Shown: one piece after another, positions 10,416-35,269 of the stretch | How positions within the stretch are numbered: the first letter of the stretch is position 1 | Layout of the letters: each line of letters starts with the position of its first letter | Source of the DNA: an uncultured Anaerolineaceae bacterium | GTDB lineage: Bacteria > Chloroflexota > Anaerolineae > JAAYZQ01 | NCBI GenBank assembly: GCA_964593865.1 | Contig: CAZQKE010000135.1 | Span: 9,849 to 73,848, forward strand | Direction of reading: 5' to 3' | Length of the DNA stretch: 64,000 bases | Translations under genes and position numbers: made by a program | The notes under the pieces: model-generated | What the model was told of the DNA's origin: nothing | The model's input: only the letters and a program-made list of their open reading frames with translations | Database searches by the model: none

Positions 10416-10512
10416 CGGGAGTGGATGGGAGTCGAACCCACCAGGGCTGCCTCTGCGGCACCCCTCAAACGGTTTTGAAGACCGCGGAGCCCACCGGGAC
10501 TCAACCACCCCC
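10416..10512 (-). tRNA. selC: tRNA-Sec (anticodon UCA)
   Basis: Minus strand: 8 bp acceptor GGGGGTGG/CCACTCCC, 6 bp D-stem GAGTCC/GGGCTC with 4 nt loop, anticodon loop CTTCAAA, long variable arm, 5 bp T-stem with TTCGACT; discriminator G, no encoded CCA. Confidence 0.96.
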
Positions 10513-10666: not shown

Positions 10667-11458
10667 CTAGCGGGTGCGCCGCCGCCACTCTTTCTTGATC
10701 GAAAGGGCTTTTAGCTCCTCGGGGGTTTCAACATCCATAAAATCACGGAGCAAGCGGGTGAATTTGGCGGTTTGGTCCAGCATGGGGAAGTGTTGCGCGC
10801 CCGGCAGCACGATGGCACGGGCAGCATAGTGATTCCGCTCCAACTCTTGCGCTTGGGCGGGGGAGATGACATGATCTTTGGCCCCATAAACCGTCAACAA
10901 CGGAGCGTCTACGGCATCCAGCACATCCCACAAGTCCAGGCGGGCTACCGCCTGGATGCTCAGCGCAACGGCGTTCTTGGCCGCTTTGCCGACCCCCATC
11001 TCCACTTCGCGGTAAGGTTTTTGCCGATGCCAGAAGAGGCGGGCCAGGGCTTCATTGGGACCGGCGGTCAGGAGTTTGCGGTTGATGGCATTGGCGGTCA
11101 GGGGCAAACACACGGCCATTACCTTTGAGACGCGGGCCGGTTGACGGGCTGCCAGGATGGTCGCAATGGCCGCACCCAGGGTATGCCCCACCAACGGCGC
11201 CCGAAAGATGCCCAACTCATCCATAAAGGCCACAACCAGATCCACGTAGGCGTCTATGTCATAGATCTCTTTGCTCTTGTCCGAATCGCCAAAGCCCCAC
11301 AGGTCCAGGGCATAGGTGCGAAAATCGGAGGATAGCTCATCCATCACCGGAACCCAATATCGCCAAGAGCCGAGCCAGCCGTGGATCAGGACGATGGGTT
11401 TACCCCGGCCAAAGGTTTCGTAATGGATCAGGCTACCGTCAATGAGAACGCCGCTCAT
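10667..11458 (-). CDS. Alpha/beta-fold hydrolase with Thr at the nucleophile position
   Basis: LIHGWLGS, DLWGFGDS, GHTLGA elbow, GAKDHVI, HFPMLD; paralog of 31037-31819. Confidence 0.88.
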   Translation of the reverse strand: MSGVLIDGSLIHYETFGRGKPIVLIHGWLGSWRYWVPVMDELSSDFRTYALDLWGFGDSDKSKEIYDIDAYVDLVVAFMDELGIFRAPLVGHTLGAAIATILAARQPARVSKVMAVCLPLTANAINRKLLTAGPNEALARLFWHRQKPYREVEMGVGKAAKNAVALSIQAVARLDLWDVLDAVDAPLLTVYGAKDHVISPAQAQELERNHYAARAIVLPGAQHFPMLDQTAKFTRLLRDFMDVETPEELKALSIKKEWRRRTR

Positions 11459-11471
11459 ACGCAGGAACCCG

Positions 11472-11864
11472 CTATTTCAGCTTCCCCAGACGGGTGAGGA
11501 TAGAAGCCACCCGCTTCTGCAGCACATCGGGGGCAAAGGGTTTGAGGATATACTCCTCCGCCCCCAACTCCAATCCATGTTTGATCTCGGTTTCTTGGCC
11601 GCGGGCCGACAGGAACACAACCGGGATGTCTTTGGTAGATTCCAGGGATTTGAGTTTTCGGCAGGCTTCGTAGCCGTTGAGTTTCGGCATCCGCACATCC
11701 AGCATGATCAGATCCGGCTGTTCCACAGGGGCCTTTTCCACAGCCTCCGCGCCGTTGGCCGCTTGGACGACTTGATAGCCCATGAATTCCAAGCTGAAAG
11801 CGATCAGGTTGCGGATGTCTTGTTCATCTTCTGCAACAAGGATTTTGATCTTTTCTTGAGCCAT
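11472..11864 (-). CDS. Single-domain response regulator (REC)
   Basis: AEDE, phospho-Asp in LDVRMP, LSARG, YILKPF. Confidence 0.93.
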   Translation of the reverse strand: MAQEKIKILVAEDEQDIRNLIAFSLEFMGYQVVQAANGAEAVEKAPVEQPDLIMLDVRMPKLNGYEACRKLKSLESTKDIPVVFLSARGQETEIKHGLELGAEEYILKPFAPDVLQKRVASILTRLGKLK

Positions 11865-11879
11865 CACCTACTCCCAATC

Positions 11880-12311
11880 TCAGCGCATCCATTTGCGGAC
11901 GACAACGGTCGTCCCTTTCCCCACCTGCGACCGGATTTCAAATTCATCCATCAGGCGTTTGGTTCCCGCCAAGCCTACGCCCCGCTCCCGCCGGATCGGC
12001 GCGTTAGGGTCCATAATTCGCTCCAAATCGGGGATGCCCGGCCCTTGATCTTCACACCGGATTTCAATCCCCACCCGGCCCCTTTGCTGCAACCGGCTCA
12101 GCATGATCCGCCCATGGCGGGCATAGAGCAAGGCATTACGGGCCAGCTCCGAGATGGCGGTGGCGATCCGCGCCTGGTCAATGATGCCAAAGCCCAACTC
12201 TTTGGCCAGATTCCGCCCTTCGATCCGCGCCGCGACGATGTCCAAATCGCTGTGCAGCGGAATACACCTGTTATCCGAGTCGGTTTTCCCCACCGGCAAG
12301 TTGGTGCTCAA
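11880..12311 (-). CDS. rsbT: RsbT-like anti-sigma regulatory Ser/Thr kinase
   Basis: DIVAARIEGRNLAKELGF, ATAISELARN, DQGPGI, GVGLAGTKRLMDEFEIRS..GKGTTV; start uncertain (TTG 12311 after GAGGGG). Confidence 0.85.
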   Translation of the reverse strand: MSTNLPVGKTDSDNRCIPLHSDLDIVAARIEGRNLAKELGFGIIDQARIATAISELARNALLYARHGRIMLSRLQQRGRVGIEIRCEDQGPGIPDLERIMDPNAPIRRERGVGLAGTKRLMDEFEIRSQVGKGTTVVVRKWMR

Positions 12312-13971
12312 CTTTCCCCTCGAAACCCGGCGCAGCGACCATTTCTTCAATCGTGCTCAAAAGATGCGCCTGGGCTTTTACCATTTCTTGCAGATCGGTG
12401 TTGACCAGCTGGAGATCGGCCACCAACTGGGCGTTTTCAATGGCCAGGGCCGCTTCCTGGGCAAACAGTTCAATGATCCGCAATGCTTCGGCGGTAGGCA
12501 GACGGCGATCCTCCGGCTCCCCCAGGGCCACGACACCGATCATCTGCTCCTTGCGACCCAACAAGGGCACATACAACCGGTCCAGCGGATGCCAAGTTTC
12601 GGCATCCGGCGGCTCCTCCGGTTCCTCCATGCCGGGCCAGGGCGCAAAGGCACGCACTTGGGCATCCCGCCAGGGCAGGTAATAGCAACCGCCGATACGG
12701 AAGCGGGCCATTTCCTCGCCAAAGCAGACGTTTCCTTCTCGGCAAGGAAGCCAGGCGGTGTGCAACAAAGGTTCTTCCTCCGGCGTGTACCCCGCATGGG
12801 CCAGATCCGTGACGTTCATCTCCCGATCCCACAAAAAGACGGCCACCCGGCCCCATCCCAGGGAACGGAGACCTTTGGCGATCTGCTGCAACCGCGAAGG
12901 GACATCATCTGCCCGCTGAACGTCCGCGATGACCCGGTGCAGATGCACCAATTTGTCCCGCTCGGCGGCGATCTCTTGTTGGGCCTTGCGCAGCCCGGCG
13001 ACCAGGGCAGCGTTCTGCAACCCCACACCGGCCTGGTTGGCAATGGCCGAAAGCAAACGGAGTTGACGCGATGTGAAGGCATAGGGTTCGTAGCTTTGGG
13101 AGCTGATCACGCCCAGGACCCGGTCGGCAAGTTTGATCGGCACGCCGATCCACGATTGGGTAGGCTCGCCCATCACAACCGGCGCAATCGGCAGGGAATC
13201 GCGTTCCCGCTCCAGATGGCGGATCAGGAGCGGTTCACCGCTGCGGATGACGTAATCGGCCAGGCCCTCGGTCTCGCTCAGGGGCATGGTGAACGGTTCG
13301 ATCCACTTGCCTTGATCGTACATCAAACGGAAATCCAGTTCCCGACGCTGTGGGTCGTAGAGGGCCACAAAGAAAGCCGATGTGTCCATGATCCGACCGG
13401 CCTGTTCATAGATGACCTGCAAAATCCGGTCCACATCCAAGCTGGTGGCCAGCTCTGCGCCGATGTTGTAGAGCGACTCCATCTCCTCTGCCCGGCACAG
13501 GGCCTGCTCCAAAAGCCACGCCCGCTGCACAAGAGGTGCAACCCGGTCTGCAAGGGAGACCAAGCGGCGCAGATGGTCCCGATCAAAGACACCGGGTCGG
13601 CGCGCCGTGGCATAGATCACGCCGATAGCCTGTCCACCGACCATCAACGGCGCACCGGCTACCGCCCGGATCGGATCGGTGCGCCCGCTGATGTGCAACC
13701 GACGCGGGTCTTGATCGGCATCTGCAATAAGGGTCGGACGGCCCTCCCGCACGATCCAGGCGTTGATGCCCTGCTCCAGGGTCAGGTCCAGGCCCAGGAA
13801 CCATTCGGCGCCCTCGCCGCTGACGGCCCGGCATTGCAGGGTACGCCCCCGCGCCGTGACCAGGTTGATGATGCACATGTCATAGGGCAGTATCTCCCGG
13901 ACCTGCGCCAGGATGTCGTCCAGGATTTCATCTAGGTTGTCACTCCGCCCGATCATGACGTTCTGTGTCAC
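12271..13971 (-). CDS. Multi-GAF sensor protein with no output domain
   Basis: Three GAF-like repeats ending in QRAWLL / QNAALV / ENAQLV helices; short coiled tail; no HisKA, STAS or PP2C domain seen. Confidence 0.8.
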   Translation of the reverse strand: MTQNVMIGRSDNLDEILDDILAQVREILPYDMCIINLVTARGRTLQCRAVSGEGAEWFLGLDLTLEQGINAWIVREGRPTLIADADQDPRRLHISGRTDPIRAVAGAPLMVGGQAIGVIYATARRPGVFDRDHLRRLVSLADRVAPLVQRAWLLEQALCRAEEMESLYNIGAELATSLDVDRILQVIYEQAGRIMDTSAFFVALYDPQRRELDFRLMYDQGKWIEPFTMPLSETEGLADYVIRSGEPLLIRHLERERDSLPIAPVVMGEPTQSWIGVPIKLADRVLGVISSQSYEPYAFTSRQLRLLSAIANQAGVGLQNAALVAGLRKAQQEIAAERDKLVHLHRVIADVQRADDVPSRLQQIAKGLRSLGWGRVAVFLWDREMNVTDLAHAGYTPEEEPLLHTAWLPCREGNVCFGEEMARFRIGGCYYLPWRDAQVRAFAPWPGMEEPEEPPDAETWHPLDRLYVPLLGRKEQMIGVVALGEPEDRRLPTAEALRIIELFAQEAALAIENAQLVADLQLVNTDLQEMVKAQAHLLSTIEEMVAAPGFEGKVEHQLAGGENRLG

Positions 13972-13978
13972 CGGAACC

Positions 13979-16153
13979 TCAATCTGCAACCGGCAGGGTG
14001 AAGCTAAAAACGCTTCCCTTGCCCGGTTCGCTCTCCACCCAGATTTTGCCCCCGTGGAGCTCCACCAGGGACTTGGCGATGGATAGACTCAACCCCCGTC
14101 CACTGTGGTGCTGGACCACGGGGTGCTCCGCCCGGAAGAAGCGATCAAAGACATGGGGCAAGTCCTCCGGGGCAATGCCGATACCGGTATCGGCGACCGA
14201 GACGGTAATCCATTTGTTCCGATCATCTCGGCGGCGGTGGCGGCTGCCGAGCCTGGCCTCGACGGTCACACGGCCTTTAGGCAAGGTATAAAGGTAAGCG
14301 TTCATCAACAGGCTGTTCAGCACCTGGCTCAGTCGTGCCCGGTCGGCATAGACCAACGGCAACCGCGAGGATACCTTGACGTTCAGGCGCATCCCTTTGT
14401 CTTTGAACCGTTCTTTGTAGGAAGCGGTCACCTGGGTCACGACCTCTTTGAGGGAGATCGGCTCCAGCTCAAGCTGGGTCTCGCCCGTTTCCAAACGGGC
14501 GATGTCCAGCATATCCTCCATCAACTCAATGAGATAGTCGGTGCTCTCCTCAATTTTGGCGACGCTATCCAAGGCGCCGGGTTCCAACGGCCCCATCGCC
14601 CCGGAAAGGAGCATACTGCTATACCCTTTGATGGCCGTCAGAGGCGAGCGCAACTCTTGGGCCACGGATTGAACAAAGCGGCTTTGGGCCAGGTGCATCT
14701 CCTGGGCTTCCCGGTAGAGGCGGGCGTTCTCCAAAGCGATGGCCAAGGGCCGGGCTACGTTGTTCAACCGTTCCACATCCTCCTGGGTGAAAGGGCCGTC
14801 CAGCTTATTCAGCAGCTCCATCACGCCGGTACAGCGATCATGGACCATAAGGGGCACGCACAGGATGGAGCGGGTGACAAAGCCGGTCTGGGCATCTACT
14901 TCGTTGAAGAATTGGTCGTCTTGGTAGGCATTGTTGACCACCGCCGGTTGATGGGAGATGGCAACCTGACCGGCGATCCCTTGCCCCAGTTTGAGCCGCA
15001 CCCCCCGCAGCGACTCCTCTTCCCCCATCCAGCTGGTGACGAATTCCAACTCCTGGGCTTCTTCATCCAACAGCATCAGCGAACCGGCTTCAACGCGGAA
15101 CATTTCGCCGATCTTGGCCGTCACCGTGTCAAAGATTTCGTTCTGGTCCAGGGTAGAAGTCACGGTCTGGGTGATTTCGTACAGATCGGTCACCTCTTTG
15201 ATCCGCTGGGCCAAAGCCTCATCGGTGGCGCGATAGGCGCGGGCGTTTTCAATGGCAATGGCAGCGTAATCGGCCAATGCCTGGATCATGGCCTCATCGT
15301 TGGTCCCAAAGGGACGACCGGGCGTCCGGTTTGCTACGGCCAGGATACCGATGGACTGGCCTTTATACAGCAAGGGAACGGCCAGCAAGGCCGAGACGGC
15401 ATATCCCCCTCGGACGAGAATCGGGCGCGCGCCCCGTTCCGCCGCCAAGCGGAGCGGCTTGTTGCCGCGTAAGGCTTGGCCGACGATGCTCTCCCCGGCA
15501 TCGAGCACCTGCACCAACGACCGGCGTTCCCCCAACCCCTGGGCGGTCTGCAGGTGCAGGGTATCGCCCTGGCCCTCTTCCCGCAACCACAACATTCCCT
15601 CTTCGGCGCGGGTGATGAACAAAGCACCTTCTACTACGCGGTCAAGGACCTTGTCCAGGTGCAACTGGGCGGTCACCGATTTGCTGATGCCGAGGAGGAC
15701 GTTTAGTTCCCGGAGGCGTTGTTCCAGGTCCCGACGGGTCTGTTCCAATTGGCGGGTCAGCCGCTCTTTGTCCCGTTCCAGGCGCACCTGGGCCAGTACC
15801 CGGTCAATGGTCGCGGTGGCAACCTCGGTGTCAAAGGGTTTGATCAAATAGTCCCTGGCCCCCAGGCGGAAGGCTTCGGCGGCGATGGATTCGGAGCCGT
15901 GGGCGGTCATCACGATCACCGGCACATCTTGGCCTCGCTCGTGCAGGTCCCGCAGGATGTCCAGCCCATCCATATCGGGCAGCTGCAGGTCCAAGAGGAT
16001 CAAGTCCGGTTCTCGTTCGGCGATGAGGCGCATGGCCTGACGCCCGTAAGCGGTGTCCAGGGTCCGATAGCCGTACAGGGGCAACACCTCACGGCTCAGG
16101 AATTCGCGGAGCTGGTCGCTATCTTCAATTATCAGTATCAGCTCATTGCTCAC
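13979..16153 (-). CDS. REC-GAF-GAF-HisKA-HATPase hybrid kinase-like protein with H-box His replaced by Gln
   Basis: N-terminal REC (EDS, LLDLQLP, KPF); H-box reads VAQELRSP; DTGIGI, FDRFFR, GRGLSL ATP-box motifs; start GTG 16153. Confidence 0.88.
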
Positions 16154-18695
16154 GGGACATCTCCGCAACGGGCAGGGTGAAGCCAAAGGTGCTTCCCCGG
16201 CCTACCTGACTTTCTACCCACAGATCGCCGCCATGCAGTTCTACCAAAGACTTGGTAATCGCCAATCCCAGGCCAGTCCCCGGCTGTTCGCGTACCACGG
16301 GGTCCTCCGCTCGGTAGAAACGATCAAAGATGTGCTCCAAATCGTCGGGGTGAATGCCGATGCCGGTATCGCAGACGGTGATCTCCACCATGCCGTTTCT
16401 GCGCTCCGCCGCCACGGTGATCCGGCCCCCGGCGGGGGTGTAACGACAGGCATTGGTCAGCAGGTTGGTCAGAATCTGCTCCACCCGTTGGCGGTCGCCC
16501 AAGACGGTGACATCTTGGAGCGCGATCTTGACGCGCAGTCCCTTTTCCTCAATCATGGAGGTCAGGGAAGCAACAACCCCCGACACCGTATCCTGCAAGG
16601 GGAGGGGACGGGGCCGGAGGGTCAGCCGCCCGCTCTCAATACGTGCTATATCGGAGAGATCGGCCACCAGGCGCATCAGCCGCTGGGTGTTGCGGTGGAC
16701 GATTTGGAGGTAGCGTTGCCGTTGCTCTTGAGGGACATCTTTCCCCTCTCCCAACAACAATTCTGTGTACCCCCCGATGGCGGTCATCGGTGTACTCAGT
16801 TCATGGTACACGGCAGAGATGAAATCCCGCAGTTCCTTGGTGCGCTCCCGAACCTTCTTCTCCAATTCCCGGCTAAAGGCATGGACCTGTTCGTACAAAC
16901 GGGCGTTGGTGATGGCAATGGCAGCCTGGTTTGCCAGGGTGCGCAAGAGGTCCAGCTCCCGCCGCCGGTACAGATCACCGGAGAGTTTCCCCCCCACCAG
17001 GTAAAGGCCCACCAAGTTCCCACCGCTCAACAGGGGCAGAACGGCCTGGATGCCCGCCTCCTGCCAGGACGGTGGGACCTCTACCCCTTTCTCATCGGCA
17101 CGAGGCAGGTACTCACCCTCCGAGCCATCCAACAAGAGGGTTCTTTCCGAATCAAGGAGGGTGGCAACAAGGGGGCTGTCGACCGGAATGGAAAGGGAGG
17201 AAGCGGTTACCATCCCGTTACCCTCTTGATCCTCCGAGACGGTCAGGGGCACAAGATTCGCTTCCTCTTCATCGGGGATCAGCAACCAAGCACCTTTGAT
17301 GAGCAGTTGCTCCGGCACTTCACGGGTCAGCAAACGGGCAATGTCCGAGAAACGAATGCTGGTGCTGAGCCGATGGCTCCAACGGATCAAGGCGTCCTGA
17401 AAGTCCAGTTGCTGCCGAAAGAAGAGGCGGTCCACGGCGGTCTGCAAATAGGCACGCAGCGGATTGACCAGCAGGCCGATCAAAAGGGCCGAGATAAAAA
17501 CGACAAGGGTGTAGTTCCCGCTCCCGGCGGTGATGCCCAAAGCATTCGAGAGGAACGTGATAAGCAGCAGGTAGAGGGCGGCCAGCACGGCCGTCAGCAC
17601 ACCGTAAACCATGCTGCGGTTCACCACCAGGTCCACGTCCAAGAGACGGTAGCGCAACACGGCAAAGGCGAAGGAAAGGGGCAAGGTCAGTGTCCCCAAC
17701 AACAACAGGTCCGAAAGGGTGGGCATGTAGAGGTGCAACAAGGTCAGGACGATGTCCACCACGCTGGAGGCGATGGCAACGCCCAAGCCCCACATCACCC
17801 ACTGGAGCTGCCGCCGCACTACCGAATCCGCGGTGGTAGCATACACATACCCCATGCTCCCCAGGACAAAGGCAGCCGCCAAGACCAGGTATGCGAAAGC
17901 CACGTTGGAGAAGGTCTCAAAACGGGGCGCAAACCAGATGCCGGTCCCGGCCAACAACGACCGGGTATACGCCTGGATCGTCAGGGCCATCAGCACCAAG
18001 CTGGGGATGTAGAGCAGGAGCCACCACCAGGTTCCGGGCCGCAGCCGTTCCTTGGGGAAGAGCAGGGCAAAGTGGATGACCAAAGCAGGAGCCAGGGTCA
18101 AAGCCACGATCTGAACGTAGACCAGAAGGGGGGCATTTTTATCCAACAAAGCAAAATAGAGGCCCAAAGCCAGGGAGGCGATAAAGAAAAGACGGGCAGG
18201 CCGATCCCCAAACCGCTGCAACGCTACAACCATGCCCAGCAGGATAAAGACGAAGGCGATCAGGTTGCGGATGACAAAGCGCAGATCCAGACTCTTGGTG
18301 GTGATGAAAACGGGGATCTCTACAATCCGATCGCCCCGTTGCACCGTGACGACGGCCCAGCTATCCGCTTCCAGCCGGTTTTGCACCGACCGGTACTCCA
18401 TGAGGGTGGAGACGGGCCGACCGTCAACCTCAAGGATACGATCCCCCACCTGAAAACCGATTTCCGCACCGCCCGCCCGGAGGGCAGTCACAACCAGGTC
18501 CTCGTTCACCATGACGACGGCCCGGCCCAGTTCGGACTTTGTGCCTTCCGGTGGCTGGATCGAGTGCCAATGGACATCAAAGTAAATGCCGACCGCCTGG
18601 ATGCCGAAGGCCAAGACCGTCAACACGATGACAAAGGCCCGGTACGGCCACGCCAAATCGGTTGTCCGTCTCACCTTCACCACAGACGCACTCAT
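16143..18695 (-). CDS. Membrane histidine kinase with PDZ domain, multi-TM region and GAF
   Basis: N-terminal TM, PDZ-like [13 protein letters not shown], about 7-8 TM, GAF (ITNARLY), YHELSTP H-box, [21 protein letters not shown]. Confidence 0.9.
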
Positions 18696-26911: not shown

Positions 26912-26959
26912 GAACACTACCCCCGGTTTTCCCAAAGGTCAACCGGTGGAGAGGGTTGT

Positions 26960-27856
26960 CTACAGGCCCTGCTGCGCGCGACGGCGGGCCTCCGCGGCGA
27001 CTTCGGTGATCTCGCGGATGTCGGAGAAGGGAGCGGTATCGTGCTGAATGAGGCCCACGGCCAGGGTCATCAGGGGTGCCCGCTGGGTTGTGCCGTCAGG
27101 GCCGACGACCTCAATGTAACCCCGTTCCCGGTCGCGGAAGTTGTAGAAGGTGGCGACCTCTTCACGGAAGCGTTGTTCCAACCGCTCCTTCATCTGCGGC
27201 GCGACATCGGGCGTGGTGATGATCAGGAAATCGTCACCGCCGATATGGCCGATGAAATCGTCGCCGGAGCCGAGTTCATCCACCACTTCGGTCAGCAGCA
27301 TGGCCGTAAAGCGCAGGACGTCGTCCCCCGCCACAAAGCCGTAGACATCGTTAAAGTCGTTGATGTGATTGATGCCGATATAGAGCACGGCCCAATCGTC
27401 GCGCCGCATGATCTGGCGCAGCTGATCTTCGATCAGCTTACTGCTGGGCAACCCCGTCACCGGACTGGTCAGGTTCAACCAGCCGGCCCTCCGCAACGCC
27501 CCCTGGACACGCAGCAGGAGAAGCTGCAGGTCAAAGGGTTTGGTGATATAGTCATCTGCGCCCAGTTCCAAACCGGCGATCTGGTCACTCCGCTCATCCT
27601 TCTGGGTAAGAAAGATGATGGGAATGTGGCTGGTGCGCAGGTTGGAGCGCAGACGACGGCAGACCTCGTAGCCGTTGATGTCCGGCAACATGATGTCCAG
27701 GATCACCAGGTTGGGTAGCTTACGACGACAGATCTCCAACGCCTCCTGACCTCGGGGGGCCACGATAGTTTCATAGCCCTGAGAATCAAAGTAGATGCGG
27801 AGCATGTTGGAGATGTCAAAGTCGTCTTCAACAATTAGCAGACGTCCTTTGCTCAT
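26960..27856 (-). CDS. Response regulator with (probably degenerate) GGDEF domain
   Basis: REC (EDD, ILDIMLP, KPF) plus FNDVYGFVAGDDVL and GHIGGDDF; start ATG 27856 after GGAGGT. Confidence 0.88.
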   Translation of the reverse strand: MSKGRLLIVEDDFDISNMLRIYFDSQGYETIVAPRGQEALEICRRKLPNLVILDIMLPDINGYEVCRRLRSNLRTSHIPIIFLTQKDERSDQIAGLELGADDYITKPFDLQLLLLRVQGALRRAGWLNLTSPVTGLPSSKLIEDQLRQIMRRDDWAVLYIGINHINDFNDVYGFVAGDDVLRFTAMLLTEVVDELGSGDDFIGHIGGDDFLIITTPDVAPQMKERLEQRFREEVATFYNFRDRERGYIEVVGPDGTTQRAPLMTLAVGLIQHDTAPFSDIREITEVAAEARRRAQQGL

Positions 27857-27957
27857 CCTGTTTACCTCCCTCACGTAGCGCCAGAACCTTTGCGCTATCT
27901 ATCTCTGCGGTTCATCCCCCGAACCGCCAAGATGCCAAATAGAATCTCCCTCGGCGG

Positions 27958-29040
27958 TCACCCGCCCGAACCGCCGAGACGCGCATTCCGGCGAATCCGC
28001 TCTATTTCCTCGTCGGTTACGGCCCGCTCAAAGCTGCGGAACCCGGCCAGTCGAAAGCCATGTTTGGCCGCCAATCGGGCGATCTCGTCCACCCGTTCCA
28101 GGGAGACCTCTTTGCCGATGGTATAGCTCTCATAACGGCCTTCCAGGGCCAGGACCATGGTCTCGGACATGCAGGCATAGGCTTTGCCCGGCGGAAAGCC
28201 AAAATCAAAGCCAAAATCCACATCACCGGGCACGCTCACCATCCCCCCCTCAATGACCAGGACATCATTTCGCCGCTCCACGACACGGCGGGAGACGTTA
28301 CGCGGACGGGCCACGTCGCAGACGACCGCACCGCTCTTGAGATGCTCCGGTTCCAAAAAAGGGGTGACGGCACTGGTGACGGTCAGCACGATGTCGGCTT
28401 GCCGCACCGCATCTAGCTCGGTCTGCGTTGTGGCCGTGGCCCCTTCCGCTTCAACCAACGGCTTGATCTCTTCCAAGCGACGCGGGTCGCGCCCGATAAG
28501 TATCACGTGGGGGACGCTCCGGGCGATCAGCCGGGCACACGCCTGCCCCACCGAGCCGTAGGCCCCGACCACGGCAACGGTACACTGCGCCGGATCCCGG
28601 TCCAACCGTCTGGCCCCTTCTAACGCCGCCTCTACGGCAATGGCTACGGTGTAACTATTGCCCGTCGTCACCGGGATCGAGAGGCGACGGGAAATGGTGA
28701 TCCCGGCATCCCCCACAACGGAGGTGAACGCCCCCAACCCCAGGATCTTGGCCCCCAGCTTTTCGGCCAGCCGCCCGGTTTGCACGATTTTGCGGTAGGC
28801 CGTTGCCGTCCGCACTTGGAGCATCCGCCGCGGCGTTAGAGGGCAAGCCAGCAGCCAGCCTTCAATCTCTTTGCCCGTCGCCTCCGAGCGGACGCCGACG
28901 ACATGGGAAAGATACACCGGAGGAAAGAACCGGGAGCCAAAGTCAATGATGGCTGGCGGCAGTTTGCCCAGCAACGGGTATTTGCGGGCTACATCCTTTT
29001 GTGGTTCAATGGGATGGATGATGAACGCAAAATTGTCCAT
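27958..29040 (-). CDS. Long-chain acyl-ACP reductase (AAR)-like NAD(P)-dependent oxidoreductase
   Basis: FAFIIHP, LGLGAFTS, TTGNSYT, Rossmann VVGAYGSVG, DVARPRNV, IEGG, AYACMSET (Cys equivalent to the AAR catalytic Cys). Confidence 0.75.
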   Translation of the reverse strand: MDNFAFIIHPIEPQKDVARKYPLLGKLPPAIIDFGSRFFPPVYLSHVVGVRSEATGKEIEGWLLACPLTPRRMLQVRTATAYRKIVQTGRLAEKLGAKILGLGAFTSVVGDAGITISRRLSIPVTTGNSYTVAIAVEAALEGARRLDRDPAQCTVAVVGAYGSVGQACARLIARSVPHVILIGRDPRRLEEIKPLVEAEGATATTQTELDAVRQADIVLTVTSAVTPFLEPEHLKSGAVVCDVARPRNVSRRVVERRNDVLVIEGGMVSVPGDVDFGFDFGFPPGKAYACMSETMVLALEGRYESYTIGKEVSLERVDEIARLAAKHGFRLAGFRSFERAVTDEEIERIRRNARLGGSGG

Positions 29041-29092
29041 AGCCAGACGATTCCCCGCCGGCCTCCGCCTGCTATCCCTCCATCTATCATTC

Positions 29093-30337
29093 TCAACGAG
29101 GGTACAGCTGAGGGTGCAGGTCAGAATCGGGCCACTTTAGGTGATCGCTTTCCTCATAAGAGACGTTGTGTGTAATCACCGACCGCTCGTTGGTACGGAC
29201 CAACACTACGTCCGATTCTATCATCCGGGCCGGATAGATGGTCAAATCCGCGCCGATGCGGCAATGATGGCCCACACAGCCACCCAACACCGTCATCCCC
29301 ACATCTTCCAACTGTCCCCGGTGGAAGGTGCGCAGCGGTTTGGGCAACAGGTTAAAGTCGGTAAAGGTCGTCCCTGCTCCGATGAAGGAATCACGCCCGA
29401 CCACGCAGAATTGCAGGCAGGCGTTCTGGGCCACCATCGTATCTTCCATCAAGGTAGTCATAAACAAAGAGGTGCGGAAGGGAAGGTAACACCGGTCACC
29501 GACAACGCTGATCAGCAGTTCGTTGCCGTGCAGGATGCTCACATTGTTGCCGATGATGCAGTTGGAGATCACGACCCCCGCACCGATATAGACGTTATCG
29601 CCGATGATGGTCGGCCCCTGGATGACCGCCGTGGGATCAATTTGGGTATTCCGCCCCACCTTGACCATCGCCGAATTGGAAAGAAACTGCTTTCGTTCCA
29701 GCAAGGAGCGCCAGAGGATCTTGAGCACCGTGCTGGGCTTGTTCAAGCTCCGCTCCATGCGTGCGCCCTCGGCCAGAACGCCGAACAGGCAATTGGCGAT
29801 AAAGATGTGCACCCAATTCTCTACCGAAAGAAAAGCCCGCAAAGGGATTTGGAAAACCAGGTCTCCCTTTTCCGACGACATGTGGGTCGGCACACGGTAG
29901 GAGCCAAACTCATACGCACCGCAATCGATCACCAGGGGGCGGGTGAGCTCCTCCAACCCACGGGGGTAGTACCACATGTTGGCTACATAGACATCACCTT
30001 CCCGCCGGATGCCGCTTTGCAAAGGCAAGGCGTGGGTAGTAATCACCTCATCGTCCAGGGAAAAGGCCACGCGGCAGGCTTTGCCCAAAGAGCGGGCCTT
30101 GGATAAAAAGGTCTCGATGAAGGCTTGATCAAAAAAGAGATTGTCCCGGTAGACTAGGGTTTCTTCATAACTATCGGGAATCTGCTCGAAAAAATCGGTT
30201 TCTATCTCGGAATCGCAATAAGGCTCCAGAATATCTTTTTGATGCAGCCACAGAGGCTTGTTCAACACCCGCAATTCACGCGCAGGCTCGTTGAAAGGTG
30301 GGATTTTGCGTTTGTCGCGGATGATCACTTTCCTCAT
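29093..30337 (-). CDS. Left-handed beta-helix (hexapeptide repeat) protein with a nucleotidyltransferase-like N-terminal remnant
   Basis: VGRNTQIDPTAVIQGPTIIGDNVYIGAGVVISNCIIG repeats; N-terminal LNKPLWLHQ. Confidence 0.8.
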   Translation of the reverse strand: MRKVIIRDKRKIPPFNEPARELRVLNKPLWLHQKDILEPYCDSEIETDFFEQIPDSYEETLVYRDNLFFDQAFIETFLSKARSLGKACRVAFSLDDEVITTHALPLQSGIRREGDVYVANMWYYPRGLEELTRPLVIDCGAYEFGSYRVPTHMSSEKGDLVFQIPLRAFLSVENWVHIFIANCLFGVLAEGARMERSLNKPSTVLKILWRSLLERKQFLSNSAMVKVGRNTQIDPTAVIQGPTIIGDNVYIGAGVVISNCIIGNNVSILHGNELLISVVGDRCYLPFRTSLFMTTLMEDTMVAQNACLQFCVVGRDSFIGAGTTFTDFNLLPKPLRTFHRGQLEDVGMTVLGGCVGHHCRIGADLTIYPARMIESDVVLVRTNERSVITHNVSYEESDHLKWPDSDLHPQLYPR

Positions 30338-30349
30338 GCGATCCCTCGT

Positions 30350-31012
30350 TCAATCCAACGGTCGCTTTTCGATCAAGTATGTGCAGGTTGGATCGCCTTT
30401 GGCAATGCACAGGATCTCTTCCACGCGGACGTTTTTGCCCCCCGTGACCCAGTGCAAACCCTCCTGGAGCAGCCCCAAACCGGCATGGCAGATAGGTACA
30501 TCCGAGTGTCGCCCCCAACAAACAGGGCAGCGATCAATGTGGTAGAGAAAGTGATCAATATCCTCCTCCACCCGGACGATCTGATCGCTGGTCTTGTTGA
30601 AGGTTTCGGCCATGGCGTTGATGCCGACTTTGAGCTTCATGCTCAGAGGCAAAAGGCGGAAGGCCAGATCGGCCACGCCCAGCACCGCGCCGAATTCACG
30701 GATGCCGTAATAGAACCCAGCCCGTCCGGCCCGGATGGCCAGACCGCGCCCCCCTCGCGGCCCGTACATATCGTCCAGGGCCTGGTTCAGGGCAGCCATC
30801 TCCTCAAAACTCCAGCCCAGGTCCAGGTTGTTAGGCGGATAGTTGTTGATGCGGTGGCGCAATTTGGCCAAGTTCAGAACGGCGTTGACGCCGTTCTTGC
30901 CCATCACATCCTCCAGGGCGATCAGCATCATCCGCCCCATTTTGTTGGGCCAATAATATTGCACCTTTTCTTCTTCTTCCTTGTGTTCGTGGCTGTGTTC
31001 ATTATCGGTCAT
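30350..31012 (-). CDS. V4R (4-vinyl reductase) domain protein
   Basis: CPVCWGR, ICH..LGLLQEGL, VEEILCIAKGDPTC Cys pattern. Confidence 0.88.
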   Translation of the reverse strand: MTDNEHSHEHKEEEEKVQYYWPNKMGRMMLIALEDVMGKNGVNAVLNLAKLRHRINNYPPNNLDLGWSFEEMAALNQALDDMYGPRGGRGLAIRAGRAGFYYGIREFGAVLGVADLAFRLLPLSMKLKVGINAMAETFNKTSDQIVRVEEDIDHFLYHIDRCPVCWGRHSDVPICHAGLGLLQEGLHWVTGGKNVRVEEILCIAKGDPTCTYLIEKRPLD

Positions 31013-31036
31013 CGAGTACCCCTCACAAAACGATCC

Positions 31037-31819
31037 CTAACCGGCCAGAAAATCGAGCAAAATGGCGTGGAATCGGTCGGGTTCATCCAGCATGGGGAAA
31101 TGGCGCGAATGTTCCAGGATTTCTATGCGGGAACGGGCCACACGGCGAAACAGCTCGGCCTGTTTGGGGTCCACGATCTTGTCGCCCTTCCCATAGACGC
31201 CCAGCGTCGGCATCCGCAGCGTGCCCAACCGGGGGGTGAGATCGGTACGGTGCAAGGAGTGGATGCTCCACAAGAACGATTCCAGCGTCATCTTGGATAG
31301 GTCTCGCATGAGCAGATCGTACCACTCACTCCAGTTGGCTGCGATCCAGGGGGCAAAGATTTTGATGCCCAGCCGCAACAGGGCGGGCGAGTTCCAAACC
31401 AGGAAGGCGATCCATGGATAGCCGGCCAGCTTGAGGAAAAAGTTCAGCGACCGGCCGTCCACCGGCGAGCCGACGACGGCAACTTTTTCCACCCGCTGGG
31501 GCCGGTCCAGGGCCAGATTGAGGGCAACCGTTCCCCCCATTGAATGGCCGATCACCGGCGCGTGCTGGATGCCCATGCGCTCCATGAATTGGTCAACGAG
31601 GGCAACAAAGTCCGCAATTTCGTAGCTTTCGCGGCGTTTATCCGATTCGCCAAACCCCCAAAAGTCCAAAGCATAGGCCCGGTGTCTGGGGGCCAGGGCT
31701 TCCATCGTGCCCAACCAACAACCCCACGACCCCAGCCAGCCATGCAACAGAACAACCGGTTTTCCTCGGCCATACACTTCATAGTGTACGACCCCCTGAC
31801 TGGTGACGATTGAACTCAA
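31037..31819 (-). CDS. Alpha/beta-fold hydrolase (canonical Ser)
   Basis: LLHGWLGS, DFWGFGES, GHSMGG nucleophile elbow, GKGDKIV, HFPMLDE. Confidence 0.92.
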   Translation of the reverse strand: MSSIVTSQGVVHYEVYGRGKPVVLLHGWLGSWGCWLGTMEALAPRHRAYALDFWGFGESDKRRESYEIADFVALVDQFMERMGIQHAPVIGHSMGGTVALNLALDRPQRVEKVAVVGSPVDGRSLNFFLKLAGYPWIAFLVWNSPALLRLGIKIFAPWIAANWSEWYDLLMRDLSKMTLESFLWSIHSLHRTDLTPRLGTLRMPTLGVYGKGDKIVDPKQAELFRRVARSRIEILEHSRHFPMLDEPDRFHAILLDFLAG

Positions 31820-31828
31820 TCTTTTCTC

Positions 31829-32200
31829 CTAGATGAGGCGGCTAAAGTCTTCGGCAGCCCGCCGCATATCCAAAAAGACCAAACCGAGCTTGGCATTCTG
31901 GCGGGCCAGAACGGTCAAGACCGCATCCTCCCCCACCGCCGACAGGATCACATAGCCGTTCGCGCCGCGAATGTAAACCTGATCAAGGACACCACGCCCC
32001 AGCTCACTGGCGATCCGCTCGCCCAGGCTGAGCATGGCCGCGCTCATCGCCGAGACCCGGTCCTCTTCCACATCGGGCGGCAGGGCGGAAGCGATGATCA
32101 GGCCATCCACGCTGACAACAGCCGAAGCCTCAATGTCCGGTGTATTGACCTGCAAGTCTTTGAGACGGGCGATCATTTGCTCTGTGCGCGATTGTGCCAT
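31829..32200 (-). CDS. Roadblock/LC7 domain protein (MglB/CvnB-like)
   Basis: SAVVSVDGLIIAS, AMSAAMLSLGE, VYIRGANGYV, AKLGLVF pattern; 123 aa. Confidence 0.92.
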   Translation of the reverse strand: MAQSRTEQMIARLKDLQVNTPDIEASAVVSVDGLIIASALPPDVEEDRVSAMSAAMLSLGERIASELGRGVLDQVYIRGANGYVILSAVGEDAVLTVLARQNAKLGLVFLDMRRAAEDFSRLI

Positions 32201-32260
32201 TTTTCCAATCCTTTCTTACAAAAGATGTGTATCGGTCAACTCGGTGTTGCCCAGACGAAT

Positions 32261-32800
32261 CTACTCCTCTTCGGGAGGCGTCTTTTCCAAAATGGTGTAC
32301 AATAACTCCAACAATACGTTTTTGACGCTCTCCTTATCGGTAGCCACGCAGGGCAAAATTTTGACATCAGGGCTGACCTTGAGGGCGATCCGCAGGTCTT
32401 CGGGCGGCCAAGCATCCTCCAAGTCCTGCTTGTTGGCCGCTACCACATAGGGTGTATCCGCATAATGGCGGAAGACATCCAAGATGCGGCGGGCTTCGCG
32501 AAAGGTCTCAGGACGTACACTATCCACCAGCACGATGAACCCCAACATGCCTTCGGACAGGATCTCCCACATAAAGTCAAACCGCTTCTGACCGGGAGTC
32601 CCGAACAGATAGAGCACCAGGTCATCATCCACCGTGATCCGCCCAAAGTCCATCGCCACGGTGGTTTCCTTCTTCACCCGCGAGGTCGCATCGGTGATCT
32701 TGCGTTCCGTGGAGACCACATCAATCTCACTGACGCTCTGGATGAAGGCGGTTTTGCCTGCGCTGAAAGGTCCGGTGACAACCATCTTCACTGTTTGCAT
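32261..32800 (-). CDS. MglA/CvnD-family small GTPase
   Basis: G1 GPFSAGKT, TTVAMDFG, G3 LFGTPGQKRF, G4 NKQD, CVA G5; start ATG 32800 (or GTG 32812). Confidence 0.93.
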   Translation of the reverse strand: MQTVKMVVTGPFSAGKTAFIQSVSEIDVVSTERKITDATSRVKKETTVAMDFGRITVDDDLVLYLFGTPGQKRFDFMWEILSEGMLGFIVLVDSVRPETFREARRILDVFRHYADTPYVVAANKQDLEDAWPPEDLRIALKVSPDVKILPCVATDKESVKNVLLELLYTILEKTPPEEE

Positions 32801-32865
32801 CTTTGCGCACACCTTGTCCTTAACTAGTCATGCTCTCTTCCACGCGGGCCGGTGATTGAAGCCGA

Positions 32866-33684
32866 TCACAGCCGTTTGATGCGAGCAATCAGTTTATGGA
32901 TGACAGATCGCTTGACGGCGGGCGGGCGGGAGACAACCTCAGCCGTGGGCGGGCGGCGCGGTGGTGCGCCTTCCGGCTCCACCATTTCAACCAGCCCGGC
33001 CTGCAACAGGCCGTAGATGATCTTGCGGATCTGGAAATCGTCCATACCGATCCGCTGGGCGATCTGCCTGATTGTATTGCGGGGGTTGATATAGGAAATC
33101 ACCCGCCATTCGTCCACGCTGAGATTGATGTTGCGCAGCTGAGCCTGGGGCCGGTCGGTAAACTTGAGGGCCATATCCAGGTCCGGCAACTCATCCTGGA
33201 GCCGCTCCCATTCCTTGACCCGGCGGCTGCCCTCCAAGATGATATTTTCCAGATCAATCGAGACGGTGATGACGCCGCCGGGGGGTAGCTGGTTCGGTTC
33301 AAAGTGGAACAACCCCTCCGTCCACGTGAACAAACCGTAGACGGTGTCCAAAATATCGTTGCGGACGCTGTTGATAATGTCCTCGTGGGTGACATACCCG
33401 GCGTTGATCAACAACATGCCCAGTTCTTTATCGGGCTTGTTCCCCGATTTGGTGCGGATGATCTTGGCCTGCTCTGCCGTGAGTTTGCCGTTGCGCGCCA
33501 GGATGCTGGCAAGGTGTTCATCCCGGTTGCTGTTGGTAGCGTATACCAGTTTCCCTTCCCGAAAATATAGAGCGGTCACGCCGGATTGCACCTGAATCGT
33601 CAACGCACCGGTTTTGCGAGCCAGATGGATCAGATTCAAGAGCTGCGTCGTGCTAAAGTCTCTGAGGTTTCCTTTCAGTGCCAT
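32866..33684 (-). CDS. DUF4388/PATAN-domain protein with C-terminal winged-helix
   Basis: MALKGNLRDFS..QLLNLI...KTGAL, LFTWTEGLFHF, ENIILEG; C-terminal EWRVIS..TIRQIA..GMDDFQIRKIIYGLLQAGLVE. Confidence 0.87.
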   Translation of the reverse strand: MALKGNLRDFSTTQLLNLIHLARKTGALTIQVQSGVTALYFREGKLVYATNSNRDEHLASILARNGKLTAEQAKIIRTKSGNKPDKELGMLLINAGYVTHEDIINSVRNDILDTVYGLFTWTEGLFHFEPNQLPPGGVITVSIDLENIILEGSRRVKEWERLQDELPDLDMALKFTDRPQAQLRNINLSVDEWRVISYINPRNTIRQIAQRIGMDDFQIRKIIYGLLQAGLVEMVEPEGAPPRRPPTAEVVSRPPAVKRSVIHKLIARIKRL

Positions 33685-33759: not shown

Positions 33760-33788
33760 ATTATACCCTGTCTCCGGGTATTAGTCAA
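33760..33788 (-). promoter_or_regulatory. Promoter of the signalling super-operon
   Basis: Minus strand TTGACT (33788-33783), 17 bp, TATAAT (33765-33760). Confidence 0.8.
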
Positions 33789-33937: not shown

Positions 33938-33967
33938 TTGTGAAAAGGCGCGCTACTGTGATATAAT
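33938..33967 (+). promoter_or_regulatory. Promoter for the DUF3048 gene
   Basis: TTGTGA (33938-33943), 18 bp, TG-extended TATAAT (33962-33967). Confidence 0.6.
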
Positions 33968-34009: not shown

Positions 34010-35269
34010 ATGCGCAATCAACAGAGAACCTGGCAGACGATTGTAATCGCAGTGGTTCTGTTTGCCGTCGCGCTGTATGCGACCGCTTGCTTGCCCTCCG
34101 GCCCCTCCGATGTCACACCAACACCGACCAAGACGCCCAAACCCCCTCTGACCGAGATCGCCGTGCTGCCGACCGCAACACCCACCCCCACTCTGACACC
34201 TACGCCTTCCCCCACCCTCGCACCGACCGACACGCCTACCGCCACACCCGAACCGACCGAAACGCCGCCTCCCACCGTCGCCGCCTGGCCTACCCTGGCC
34301 CCCAACGTTTGCCCTCTGACCGGCCAGGAAGTCAAAGACCCGGCCTTGTTGGAACGCCGTCCCCTGGCCATCAAAATCCAGAACGCCCCCATCTCCCGGC
34401 CCCAGTACGGCTTCCCCCAAGCGGACATCGTCTACGAGCACCTCTCGGAAGCCGGCATCACCCGTTTCACCGCCATCTACCTTTGCAAACCGGTGGAAAA
34501 GATCGGCTCCGTCCGCAGTGCGCGCTTCATTGACCTGGAGATCCCGGCTATGTACAAAAGCCTCATGGCCTTTTCCGGGACCAGCGCGGGCCTCTACCCC
34601 AAATTCCTCAACGCCGATTTTTACGACCGGGAATTCTGCTACGGTTGGGGGCTGCATTCCGAAGCCTTCTACCGGGATACCGAATTGCGCCGGAAAGGCA
34701 TACCCATTGAGCACACCCTGTTCGCCAGCGCAAGCAAGATCTGGGCCATTGCCGACGAACTGGGAATCAACCAGCGGCAGGAGCTGAAAGGACTGAACTT
34801 TGGCGTAGAAGTGCCCGAAGGCGGTCAACCGGCTACCCACATCAACATCCCCTACCCCCACCGCGATATGGTGGTGGACTATCGCTACGACCCGCAACAG
34901 GGCGTATACCTGCGCTGGCAAGGCGGAGACCCCTTCTTGGACGCAGCCACCGGCAAACAGATCACCGTGACCAACGTCGTCGTCCTGTACGCAACCCACG
35001 TGGACACCGACATCTACGAAGACGAACCCCGCCGCAACCACCCTTCGGTCCAGATTCAGCTTTGGGGCACAGGGCCGGCGGTCATCTTCCGCGACGGGCA
35101 GGCCTTTGAAGGGCTATGGGCCAGGCCCCGCCGGGAGGACATGGTCGTTTTCCGCGACCCTACCGGCCAGATTCCGATCCCCCTCAAGCCCGGCAATACC
35201 TGGATGCAACTGGTCCCCTTGCCGGGGCACCGCTGGAGCTTTGAGGTCTCTTGGGATGCCGAGGAGTAG
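34010..35269 (+). CDS. DUF3048-family lipoprotein with Pro/Thr linker
   Basis: Lipobox-like ALYATAC, TPTP linker, RPLAIKIQN..RPQYG..ADIVYE...GITRF, GSVRSAR. Confidence 0.85.
   Translation: MRNQQRTWQTIVIAVVLFAVALYATACLPSGPSDVTPTPTKTPKPPLTEIAVLPTATPTPTLTPTPSPTLAPTDTPTATPEPTETPPPTVAAWPTLAPNVCPLTGQEVKDPALLERRPLAIKIQNAPISRPQYGFPQADIVYEHLSEAGITRFTAIYLCKPVEKIGSVRSARFIDLEIPAMYKSLMAFSGTSAGLYPKFLNADFYDREFCYGWGLHSEAFYRDTELRRKGIPIEHTLFASASKIWAIADELGINQRQELKGLNFGVEVPEGGQPATHINIPYPHRDMVVDYRYDPQQGVYLRWQGGDPFLDAATGKQITVTNVVVLYATHVDTDIYEDEPRRNHPSVQIQLWGTGPAVIFRDGQAFEGLWARPRREDMVVFRDPTGQIPIPLKPGNTWMQLVPLPGHRWSFEVSWDAEE

Follow-up and report, generated by a model that had tools for sequence, protein, structure and literature searches.

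A predicted operon of the class Anaerolineae around a GTPGQ-type MglA-family GTPase with constant PATAN and V4R partners

Why should a small GTPase, a stand-alone V4R protein, several enzyme-like proteins and a series of sensor kinases be encoded in one uninterrupted run of genes? The question is raised by a stretch of 64,000 nucleotides from an uncultured Anaerolineaceae bacterium (assembly GCA_964593865.1, contig CAZQKE010000135.1, positions 9,849 to 73,848), hereafter called the window, in which fifteen such genes lie on the minus strand. Comparison with related loci indicates that the cluster is a conserved, undescribed and probably single-transcript operon of the class Anaerolineae, organized around a GTPase of the MglA family that carries a GTPGQ motif. 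We tentatively propose, with a probability of about 0.4, that its V4R protein is a ligand sensor that would couple a hydrophobic metabolite to this G-protein switch and to a phosphorelay.

The fifteen consecutive open reading frames (ORFs), named g1 to g15 from the upstream end, fill positions 10667-33684 and are separated by short gaps or overlaps (from g1 to g15: 53, 60, 9, 24, 12, 52, 83, 24, -4, -44, -11, -80, 12 and 13 bp); the overlap between g12 and g13 shrinks from -80 to -41 bp if g13 begins at the TTG at 12311, which is preceded by a GAGGGG ribosome-binding site. A sigma-70-type promoter, TTGACT-17-TATAAT, heads the cluster on the minus strand (33760..33788) and, with 11/12 matches, surpasses every other site in the region. 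An alignment of the 200 bp ahead of the gene for the PATAN protein (g1) in the window and in seven relatives (L001, L005, L006, L007, L010, L011 and L084) showed the pattern AGTTGAC..17..GGTATAAT and an AAGGA ribosome-binding site to be invariant and the remaining sequence to be unalignable. Because it forms a phylogenetic footprint among unalignable flanks, we regard TTGACT-17-TATAAT as a real promoter. Within the cluster, sites resembling promoters or terminators were not commoner than in shuffled sequence. The 5' boundary is a divergent intergenic region of 325 bp, and the 3' boundary is a tRNA-Sec gene (10416-10512, minus strand, anticodon TCA) directly downstream of g15, with a promoter-like site of its own that reads TTGACG-17-TATGCT (10552-10524). 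No terminator-like site was found between g15 and this gene, no riboswitch or small RNA was found in the cluster leader, and the tRNA-Sec was the only Rfam match in the window. The cluster is probably a single transcript. A sequence-only reading of the same DNA had described a tightly coupled 15-gene run under a single promoter at 33788-33760; its coordinates, its short gaps and its promoter were all recovered here, and Pfam and NCBIfam reproduced all fifteen of its domain assignments, with the corrections that the GGDEF domain is degenerate and that the protein called a Thr hydrolase appears to be a pseudo-hydrolase.

To what extent is this arrangement peculiar to the window? A genome scan with a V4R profile returned at least 578 species-level genomes, and the best 80 loci were examined, with taxonomy taken from record titles, gene calls made as simple ORF calls, and the fifteen window proteins mapped by tblastn and by ORF/blastp. 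All 80 belong to the class Anaerolineae of the Chloroflexota (the record labels include Anaerolineales, Ardenticatenaceae, Caldilineaceae, Thermoflexales, Promineifilaceae and Aggregatilineales) except L060, labelled Chloroflexia, and L065, labelled Archaeoglobales. The latter (QMZE01000099.1) carries a typical cluster; it is filed under a metagenome-assembled genome (MAG) of Archaeoglobales, most likely because an Anaerolineae contig was binned wrongly.

An order that we call type A recurs, with protein identities of 50-88%, in 45 loci that belong to several orders of Anaerolineae: PATAN with a winged helix-turn-helix (wHTH), GTPase, (roadblock), hydrolase, V4R, left-handed beta-helix (LbH) protein, (reductase), receiver (REC)-pseudoGGDEF, multi-GAF hybrid kinase, REC and hydrolase-2, the names in brackets being those not always present. 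These 45 are the loci in which the interval from PATAN to REC-pseudoGGDEF is fully covered, and PATAN is thus present in 45/45 by construction of the set. Within the interval, the GTPase and the LbH protein occur in 45/45, V4R in 44/45, the hydrolase in 43/45 and the reductase in 40/45; the succession hydrolase, V4R, LbH inside a full cluster was counted 43 times (one contig being counted twice), and the tail of REC and then hydrolase-2 follows the GAF kinase in 17 loci. The constant partners of the GTPase are PATAN, V4R and LbH. Because L005, the nearest relative by GTDB, and most other loci lack g10-g13, the conserved unit comprises about 10-11 genes, and the window has an expanded kinase section in which g10-g13 are lineage-specific insertions. 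Neighbourhood conservation, which the sequence-only reading named as a check, therefore holds in these Anaerolineae loci for about 10-11 genes and not for 15, and the conserved order extends well beyond a GTPase/roadblock pair. Flanking housekeeping genes are common to near relatives only, with the exception of a divergent DUF3048 gene. In one near relative (L084, a 1.0-Mb contig), the genes for the GTPase, V4R and the GAF kinase and the flanking YjbQ and M24 genes are fragmented, which resembles the effect of frameshift errors in a long-read assembly more than pseudogene formation.

Two smaller layouts recur in addition to type A. A three-gene operon of roadblock, V4R and REC-pseudoGGDEF (type B; for example L049 9608-11475, and also L033, L046, L051, L052 and L071-L083) recurs in Anaerolineae and is bounded by opposite-strand genes; V4R has these two neighbours in 15 loci. 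A PATAN-GTPase-V4R unit without enzymes or kinases (type C; L021 8627-10654, L061 8217-10609, L063, L037 and L031) is followed by unrelated thiamine genes; in L031, two roadblock genes stand between the GTPase and V4R. In a neighbour-joining tree of V4R, an A clade that includes type C as an inner branch separates from a B clade, which points to two ancient V4R paralog clades, and types A and B occur together in two MAGs (L012 with L028, and L015 with L074). L066 and L080 each combine a type A cluster that has no internal V4R with a B-type V4R-REC pair located 4-5.5 kb upstream of it, and the rearranged loci L066, L080 and L031 all keep the parts adjacent. We suggest that V4R and the G-protein parts work together; the strongest evidence for this is that V4R has stayed next to these parts through independent rearrangements, in three independent layouts.

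What kind of GTPase lies at the centre of this unit? The product of g2 (32261..32812, minus strand, 183 aa) is an MglA-family small GTPase of the GTPGQ type, that is, of groups 2-5 of Wuichet, and retains all nucleotide-binding motifs: G1 reads GPFSAGKT and G2 reads TT, and G1, GTPGQ (G3) and NKQD (G4) are invariant in 58/58 aligned sequences. Beside the G2 Thr, where the intrinsic Arg finger would be, there is a second Thr (xTTVAMD in 58/58). Twenty-nine residues separate GKT from TT, an insertion typical of bacterial MglA, compared with about 18 in Ras. The orthologs are 74-88% identical, and the best PDB sequence matches are 8oul and 8ouk, deposited as 'Arf GTPase', together with Thermus MglA (E ~1e-8 to 1e-7). 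The TVPGQ motif and the intrinsic Arg finger of group 1 MglA were not found in g2, and the analogy with Myxococcus MglA drawn in the sequence-only reading accordingly needs correction at the level of the GTPase.

The gene upstream, g1 (32866..33684, minus strand, 272 aa), encodes a PATAN domain (DUF4388/PatA_N; PF14332, E 3.6e-29) followed by a putative C-terminal winged helix. PATAN was reportedly treated by Makarova et al. in 2006. A sequence search of the PDB gave no PATAN structure, and DUF742/CvnC gave no match to g1 even at E up to 10, with no other candidate for it in the cluster. Downstream of the GTPase, g3 (31829..32200, minus strand, 123 aa) encodes a Roadblock/LC7 (MglB-like) protein with a VDG Asp-Gly pair (PF03259, E 3.8e-20). 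Contrary to an earlier proposal that GTPase and roadblock form the core, this is the least conserved member of the cluster: it is located within the cluster only among near relatives, a g3-type roadblock being present in 5/45 type A loci, and in seven further loci (L014-L017, L026, L029 and L034) the slot between GTPase and hydrolase holds a member of a divergent roadblock-like family of about 120-129 aa (for example L017 8691-9080). The Pfam match of this family is weak (E 1.3e-3), and hhalign aligns it with the roadblock profile at a probability of 92% (E 5.6e-7). Because g3 shares 67-80% identity with the roadblock of type B, the separate Robl-V4R-REC operons, compared with 56-65% identity between g5 and the V4R of those operons, the roadblock may be one conserved component that can be encoded either in the large cluster or in the small operon.

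The V4R protein is encoded by g5 (30350..31012, minus strand, 220 aa); it stands alone, is assigned to the H-NOX/V4R/Bet3 fold and carries a conserved Cys cluster. Its match to PF02830 (28.5 bits, E 1.6e-6) lies just under the gathering cut-off of 31, and nearly all of its orthologs have a precomputed PF02830 match. Among 65 sequences, C162, C165, C175, C202 and C210 are invariant, as are several Arg. No invariant His was found in this set, in which YxSxR was judged by eye, and H-NOX-type haem ligation by g5 is therefore unlikely. The AlphaFold2 (AF2) model of g5 is confident (predicted local distance difference test, pLDDT, 89.4) and gives the protein a ligand-binding fold of the H-NOX/MopR/Bet3 type. 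The strongest Foldseek matches of this model are H-NOX domains (E 2e-6; template modelling score, TM, ~0.7 relative to the target, TMt); the phenol-sensing V4R domains of MopR/PoxR/DmpR come second (5kbe, 7vqf and 5fru; E 2e-4 to 6e-4) and chains of TRAPPC3/Bet3 third (E 5e-4 to 2e-3, TMt 0.43-0.67), the Bet3-type matches being 6aq3 (5e-4), 7u05_F, 7b6d_G and 1wc9 (TMt 0.67). The closest analogues of the putative sensor are H-NOX/kinase operons and MopR/PoxR. With the former the cluster shares a stand-alone ligand-binding protein of the same fold beside a kinase or GGDEF-fold protein, and with the latter the Zn-type Cys cluster, which is a feature of Zn-stabilised V4R sensors. It differs from both in that g5 has no invariant haem His, is unfused to a sigma-54 activator and has a GTPase module as its partner.

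A search of 1.84 billion representatives with the V4R profile returned 1440 relatives, of which 352 have E <= 1e-30. In the 150 best representatives, V4R was found at the C-terminus of TIR-V4R, Ser/Thr kinase-TIR-V4R and CHAT-FHA-V4R proteins, and no fusion to a roadblock or a GTPase was seen. Because C-terminal placement on varied effector domains is sensor-like, these architectures favour a ligand-sensor role of V4R over a role as a dedicated exchange factor. Five of the fusion proteins (P0264, P0285, P0302, P0339 and P0353) have architectures typical of conflict/stress signalling proteins. Three apparent fusions in the loci themselves, the V4R of L037 (443 aa), the alpha/beta hydrolase of L039 (436 aa) and one in L048, were rejected as N-terminal extensions produced by first-start ORF calling.

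Could the neighbouring enzymes supply a ligand? Two of the four enzyme-like proteins, g4 and g7, retain their catalytic residues, as judged from motifs. The serine hydrolase of the alpha/beta fold encoded by g4 (31037..31819, minus strand, 260 aa) has GxSxG, Asp and His; GHSMGG is present in 52/53 orthologs, and the Asp and His are kept. The second hydrolase, g15 (10667..11458, minus strand, 263 aa), is a paralog of g4 (39% identity, E 1e-57) in which the motif reads GHTLG in the window, with Thr at the nucleophile position. Because this position is variable (T4/A6/G5/S3 in 18 orthologs, with His and Asp kept), g15 is best described as a putative pseudo-hydrolase with a variable nucleophile. 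The best PDB matches are generic esterases and meta-cleavage-product (C-C bond) hydrolases.

The product of g7 (27958..29040, minus strand, 360 aa) is an NAD(P)H-dependent acyl-thioester reductase of the AAR/PigE-N type. Its profile matches are PigE (6.5e-61) and AcACP_reductase (3.9e-35, under its cut-off), and its homologs among PDB entries are 4ppm, the PigE N-terminal domain (1.7e-33), and 6jzq, an acyl-ACP reductase (3.9e-27). The motif YACM[AS]ET, whose Cys we take to be the catalytic one, is present in 46/46 orthologs, and the GxxGxxG nucleotide-binding motif is kept. Homology to AAR and the PigE N-domain extends over the full length of the protein; g7 differs from these in that it falls far under the cut-off of the long-chain acyl-ACP reductase equivalog TIGR04058 (121.8 bits versus 449.7), with the PigE N-domain scoring higher, and in that no partner of the aldehyde-deformylating oxygenase (ADO) or aminotransferase kind accompanies it. 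The fourth protein, g6 (29093..30337, minus strand, 414 aa), joins a divergent N-terminal domain to a hexapeptide left-handed beta-helix; residues 223-320 resemble the GlmU C-domain, and the N-terminal domain lacks the GxGTR signature. Foldseek found nothing for g6 at E <= 0.001, hints of nucleotidyltransferase plus LbH being non-significant, and the protein is probably a pseudo-nucleotidyltransferase.

The two-component section begins with g8 (26960..27874, minus strand, 304 aa), in which a receiver with conserved Asp precedes a domain of true GGDEF-fold homology that is degenerate. The window reads GGDDF, and the canonical GG[DE]EF occurs in 1/54 type A and 0/17 type B orthologs; g8 cannot be assumed to be a cyclase, and we call the domain a putative pseudoGGDEF. 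The membrane-anchored hybrid histidine kinase g9 (18692..26935, minus strand, 2747 aa) has the architecture 11xGAF-PAS-HisKA-HATPase-REC-REC, about six N-terminal transmembrane segments and an intact H-box, SHELRTP. Its orthologs are of 844-2304 aa, compared with 2747 aa in the window, and a segment-wise comparison suggests that the GAF repeats are old, their mutual identity being <=40%. The lineage-specific section follows. A polytopic membrane kinase with PDZ, GAF, HisKA and HATPase domains is encoded by g10 (16143..18695, minus strand, 850 aa), with about ten transmembrane segments and an intact H-box, YHELSTP; PDZ kinases like it are also found in L007, L009, L001 and L084. The next protein, g11 (13979..16186, minus strand, 735 aa; REC-2xGAF-HisKA-HATPase), was earlier taken for a pseudokinase, a view borne out by its H-box SVAQELRSP, in which the phospho-acceptor His is replaced by Gln. 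Three GAF domains alone make up g12 (12271..13989, minus strand, 572 aa), and g13 (11880..12350, minus strand, with the TTG at 12311 as probable start) encodes a HATPase_c_2 serine kinase of the RsbT/SpoIIAB type (PF13581, 8.5e-13; spIIAB, 4.8e-13, under its cut-off), similar kinases recurring in L023 and L013. The single-domain receiver g14 (11472..11867, minus strand, 131 aa) has the phospho-acceptor Asp conserved, and its orthologs, 55-74% identical, are located after the GAF kinase in at least 17 loci. Taken over the whole cluster, catalytic motifs are kept in g2, g4 and g7 and lost in g8, g11 and g15.

The proximity of a partner-switch-type kinase to small hydrolases has parallels in RsbQ-RsbP and D14/KAI2, which are signalling alpha/beta hydrolases. 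The cluster resembles these systems in having small hydrolases of this fold in a signalling context, here as a predicted active/inactive pair (g4 and g15), and differs from them in that no specific sequence relationship was found, no STAS partner was seen in the fifteen cluster proteins or the flanking genes scanned, and no PP2C partner was seen in the cluster.

Which described system is closest to the unit as a whole? Wuichet and Sogaard-Andersen (2014) characterized groups 2-5 of the MglA family by GTPGQ, by a Thr that replaces the intrinsic Arg finger and by extra residues between G1 and G2 (PMC4316618). Their Table S2 lists Anaerolinea thermophila ANT_06780, next to PATAN (<MglA><PATAN>), with an orphan MglB, as well as Chloroflexus Cagg_2798, and their text calls the neighbourhoods of group 5 variable, with PATAN only 'occasionally' present (PMC4316618). 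'V4R' has zero occurrences in the text and supplement of that paper, which leave LbH, hydrolases, reductase and phosphorelay unmentioned (PMC4316618). Group 5 GTPases with PATAN and MglB neighbours are the closest described kind: the cluster has in common with them GTPGQ, the Thr in place of the Arg finger, the G1-G2 insertion and the adjacent PATAN gene, and differs from them in the nearly invariant V4R, LbH, hydrolase, reductase and phosphorelay partners.

The conservons of actinobacteria, which in some cases are accompanied by a cytochrome P450 as a small-molecule enzyme, are another close system. In cvn8 and its like, a kinase (CvnA), a roadblock (CvnB), a DUF742 protein (CvnC) and a GTPase (CvnD) are encoded together (PMC8510531), and the likeness lies in a single operon with a GTPGQ-type GTPase, a roadblock, a small HTH-like protein and one or more sensor kinases. 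In contrast to conservons, the cluster has no DUF742, its G4 motif is NKQD and not the NxFD of group 2, its kinases are of the ordinary HisKA kind and carry GAF arrays and receivers, it contains PATAN, V4R and LbH in addition, and its roadblock is often encoded elsewhere. What is new relative to known MglA/roadblock/PATAN modules and those of the conservon type is the presence of V4R, LbH, enzymes and a phosphorelay as stable partners; the pairing of PATAN with MglA in Chloroflexi is already known. No description of a bacterial V4R-GTPase-roadblock cluster was found in the searchable literature, in line with the earlier view that the combination is undescribed, and Podar 2008 leaves GTPase neighbours of V4R unmentioned. 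Anti-phage defence was considered and rejected, PADLOC giving no match apart from one weak receiver-domain match.

How might such a set of proteins operate? We propose that V4R would act as the sensor by binding a small hydrophobic molecule, possibly one that the hydrolase, the LbH protein and the reductase encoded beside V4R would form or trim from an acyl-thioester, and that both the GTPase module and the REC-pseudoGGDEF adaptor would receive its signal through protein contact. The PATAN-wHTH and roadblock proteins would be regulators or effectors of the GTPase. A second input would come from the membrane-bound multi-GAF kinase, which would phosphorylate the receivers of g8, of g14 and of g9 itself, and the additional PDZ kinase, pseudokinase, GAF protein and RsbT-like kinase of the window may contribute to this input. 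Phosphorylation of the receivers could then bias the GTPase cycle, by analogy with the receiver proteins that do so for MglA in Myxococcus. The output would most likely pass through PATAN-wHTH, either as DNA binding or as recruitment of a cellular machine.

Several observations weigh against this proposal. All of the coupling is suggested by association of genes (guilt by association), and no histidine phosphotransfer (Hpt) domain was seen that would complete the wiring of a phosphorelay. The presumed DNA-binding part of g1 has weak MarR/wHTH matches (E ~0.03, residues 188-237). The LbH protein may be non-catalytic, given the loss of its signature and the poor AF2 model (pLDDT 55). The enzymes that would make the ligand are individually dispensable, the hydrolase being missing from L007, L009 and L084 and the reductase from 5/45 loci, and types B and C are without any enzymes. 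Because the small V4R operons carry no enzymes, the ligand of V4R may come from general metabolism, or V4R may need none.

Other accounts of the cluster have to be set against a ligand-sensing V4R. One of them, a switch of polarity, filament form or development analogous to Myxococcus MglAB, concerns the level of output only and is compatible with ligand sensing. Cultured members of the class Anaerolineae are filamentous, and in cyanobacteria both the pilus motor and the divisome are targets of PATAN proteins. In Myxococcus and Thermus, polarity is governed by relatives of the GTPase and roadblock, and the Ras-like GTPase, the roadblock-fold partner and the receiver-domain modulators of that module recall the present proteins (PMC3199381). 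The sequence neither supports nor contradicts a polarity output, to which we give a rather low probability. Against it, the GTPase is not a group 1 MglA, neither TVPGQ nor the Arg finger being present, RomR/RomX are absent, and no pilus, gliding, motility, division or cytoskeleton gene is linked to the cluster in the window or in any locus inspected. A closer role for V4R is suggested by TRAPP, the eukaryotic system nearest to this set of folds, in which V4R/Bet3, roadblock and small GTPase folds come together as they do here through operon linkage; such a linkage is reported to be lacking in the Asgard archaeon MK-D1, which hampers the matching of GTPases to regulators (PMC10933270). V4R, as a homolog of Bet3/TRAPPC3, and the roadblock would then regulate the Ras-like GTPase directly, as an exchange factor or a platform for a GTPase-activating protein. 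The Foldseek matches of g5 to TRAPPC3/Bet3 chains are what such a role predicts, as is the fact that V4R directly adjoins GTPase or roadblock genes in three layouts, and the guanine nucleotide exchange factor of TRAPP is itself built from roadblock/longin platforms and Bet3-fold subunits (PMC3747258, PMC10933270, PMC2253512). The fold of g5 is nevertheless nearer to the H-NOX and MopR/PoxR sensors than to Bet3, the Zn-type Cys cluster is likewise a sensor feature, in the 150 best representatives V4R is fused to TIR, kinase and CHAT-FHA and never to a roadblock or GTPase, and no longin subunits are encoded; an exchange-factor role, argued by analogy, is decidedly improbable. If it were true, the V4R-roadblock-GTPase partnership of eukaryotic membrane traffic would pre-exist as an operon-encoded module in Bacteria.

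The enzymes could instead be the purpose of the operon, with the hydrolase, an LbH acyltransferase and the thioester reductase making a lipid-derived product (an aldehyde, an alcohol or an envelope lipid), V4R serving as carrier of the product, as proposed for BchJ, and the GTPase and two-component genes acting only as regulators. The conserved Ser/Asp/His of g4, the Cys and NAD(P) motif of g7 and the homology of g7 to AAR and the PigE N-domain are consistent with this, as are the annotation of V4R proteins as hydrocarbon-binding and the envelope genes in the flanks (Wzy-like and DUF3048 lipoprotein). Yet only two enzymes are clearly active by prediction, each of them missing from some lineages; the cluster contains no synthase, carrier protein, ADO partner or exporter; V4R retains its G-protein neighbours in operons that are free of enzymes; and ten or more of the fifteen genes encode signalling proteins, so that a biosynthetic purpose is unlikely. 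Finally, three unrelated operons, for a G-protein, enzymes and a two-component system, might lie next to each other by chance. Internal promoters could be concealed in the gaps, which reach 83 bp in the window and about 250 bp in L017, and the kinase section is plastic, but 45 loci with differing flanks share the order even where protein identity falls to about 50%, the promoter upstream is conserved, and the rearranged loci keep the parts as neighbours. A chance juxtaposition is already contradicted by these synteny data and is scarcely credible. The sensing of a hydrophobic ligand by V4R, coupled to the GTPase and phosphorelay, is the reading that we prefer.

Among the flanking genes, that for a YerB-like DUF3048 lipoprotein (34010..35269, plus strand), divergent from the cluster, is a candidate associated gene. 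The protein has a lipobox-like LYATAC followed by a Pro/Thr linker, and a promoter-like site with an extended -10 TG (TTGTGA-18-TATAAT, 33938-33967, plus strand) faces the gene, back-to-back with the cluster promoter. Of the 47 loci whose upstream sequence is long enough, 20 have a DUF3048 gene divergent from PATAN and five (L064, L067, L070, L075 and L077) have one directly downstream of hydrolase-2; the lipoprotein may be an extracytoplasmic member of the system. The other genes of the window are housekeeping ones: argG, argH, tgt, uppP, glycosyltransferases, two Wzy-like proteins and an N6 methyltransferase. The two Wzy_C (O-antigen-ligase-like) membrane proteins (8877-10364 and 50799-52265, both on the minus strand) share the window with a GT4 glycosyltransferase, an NAD-dependent epimerase/dehydratase (52282-53226) and UppP, which suggests that the window is a cell-envelope polysaccharide neighbourhood. 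The methyltransferase (60578-62725, minus strand, 715 aa), with N6_Mtase and an Eco57I-type methylase domain, coincides with a drop of the local GC content to 0.53-0.58 and is possibly a restriction-modification enzyme of type IIG/IIL.

Stand-alone V4R proteins of prokaryotes have no established function, and MglA-type GTPases of group 5 have been described as uncharacterised (PMC4316618, PMC3791482). The cluster supplies both with a fixed, testable set of partners in hundreds of genomes, and it provides a bacterial case in which genes for V4R/Bet3-fold, roadblock and small-GTPase proteins are physically linked, a link to eukaryotic trafficking. With a putative pseudo-GGDEF, pseudo-kinase and pseudo-hydrolase and probably a pseudo-nucleotidyltransferase, it is rich in pseudo-enzymes and could serve as a model for the reuse of dead enzymes as signalling adaptors. 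Anaerolineae are abundant in sludge, sediments and digesters, and a signalling system that extends across the class could bear on their filamentous lifestyle.

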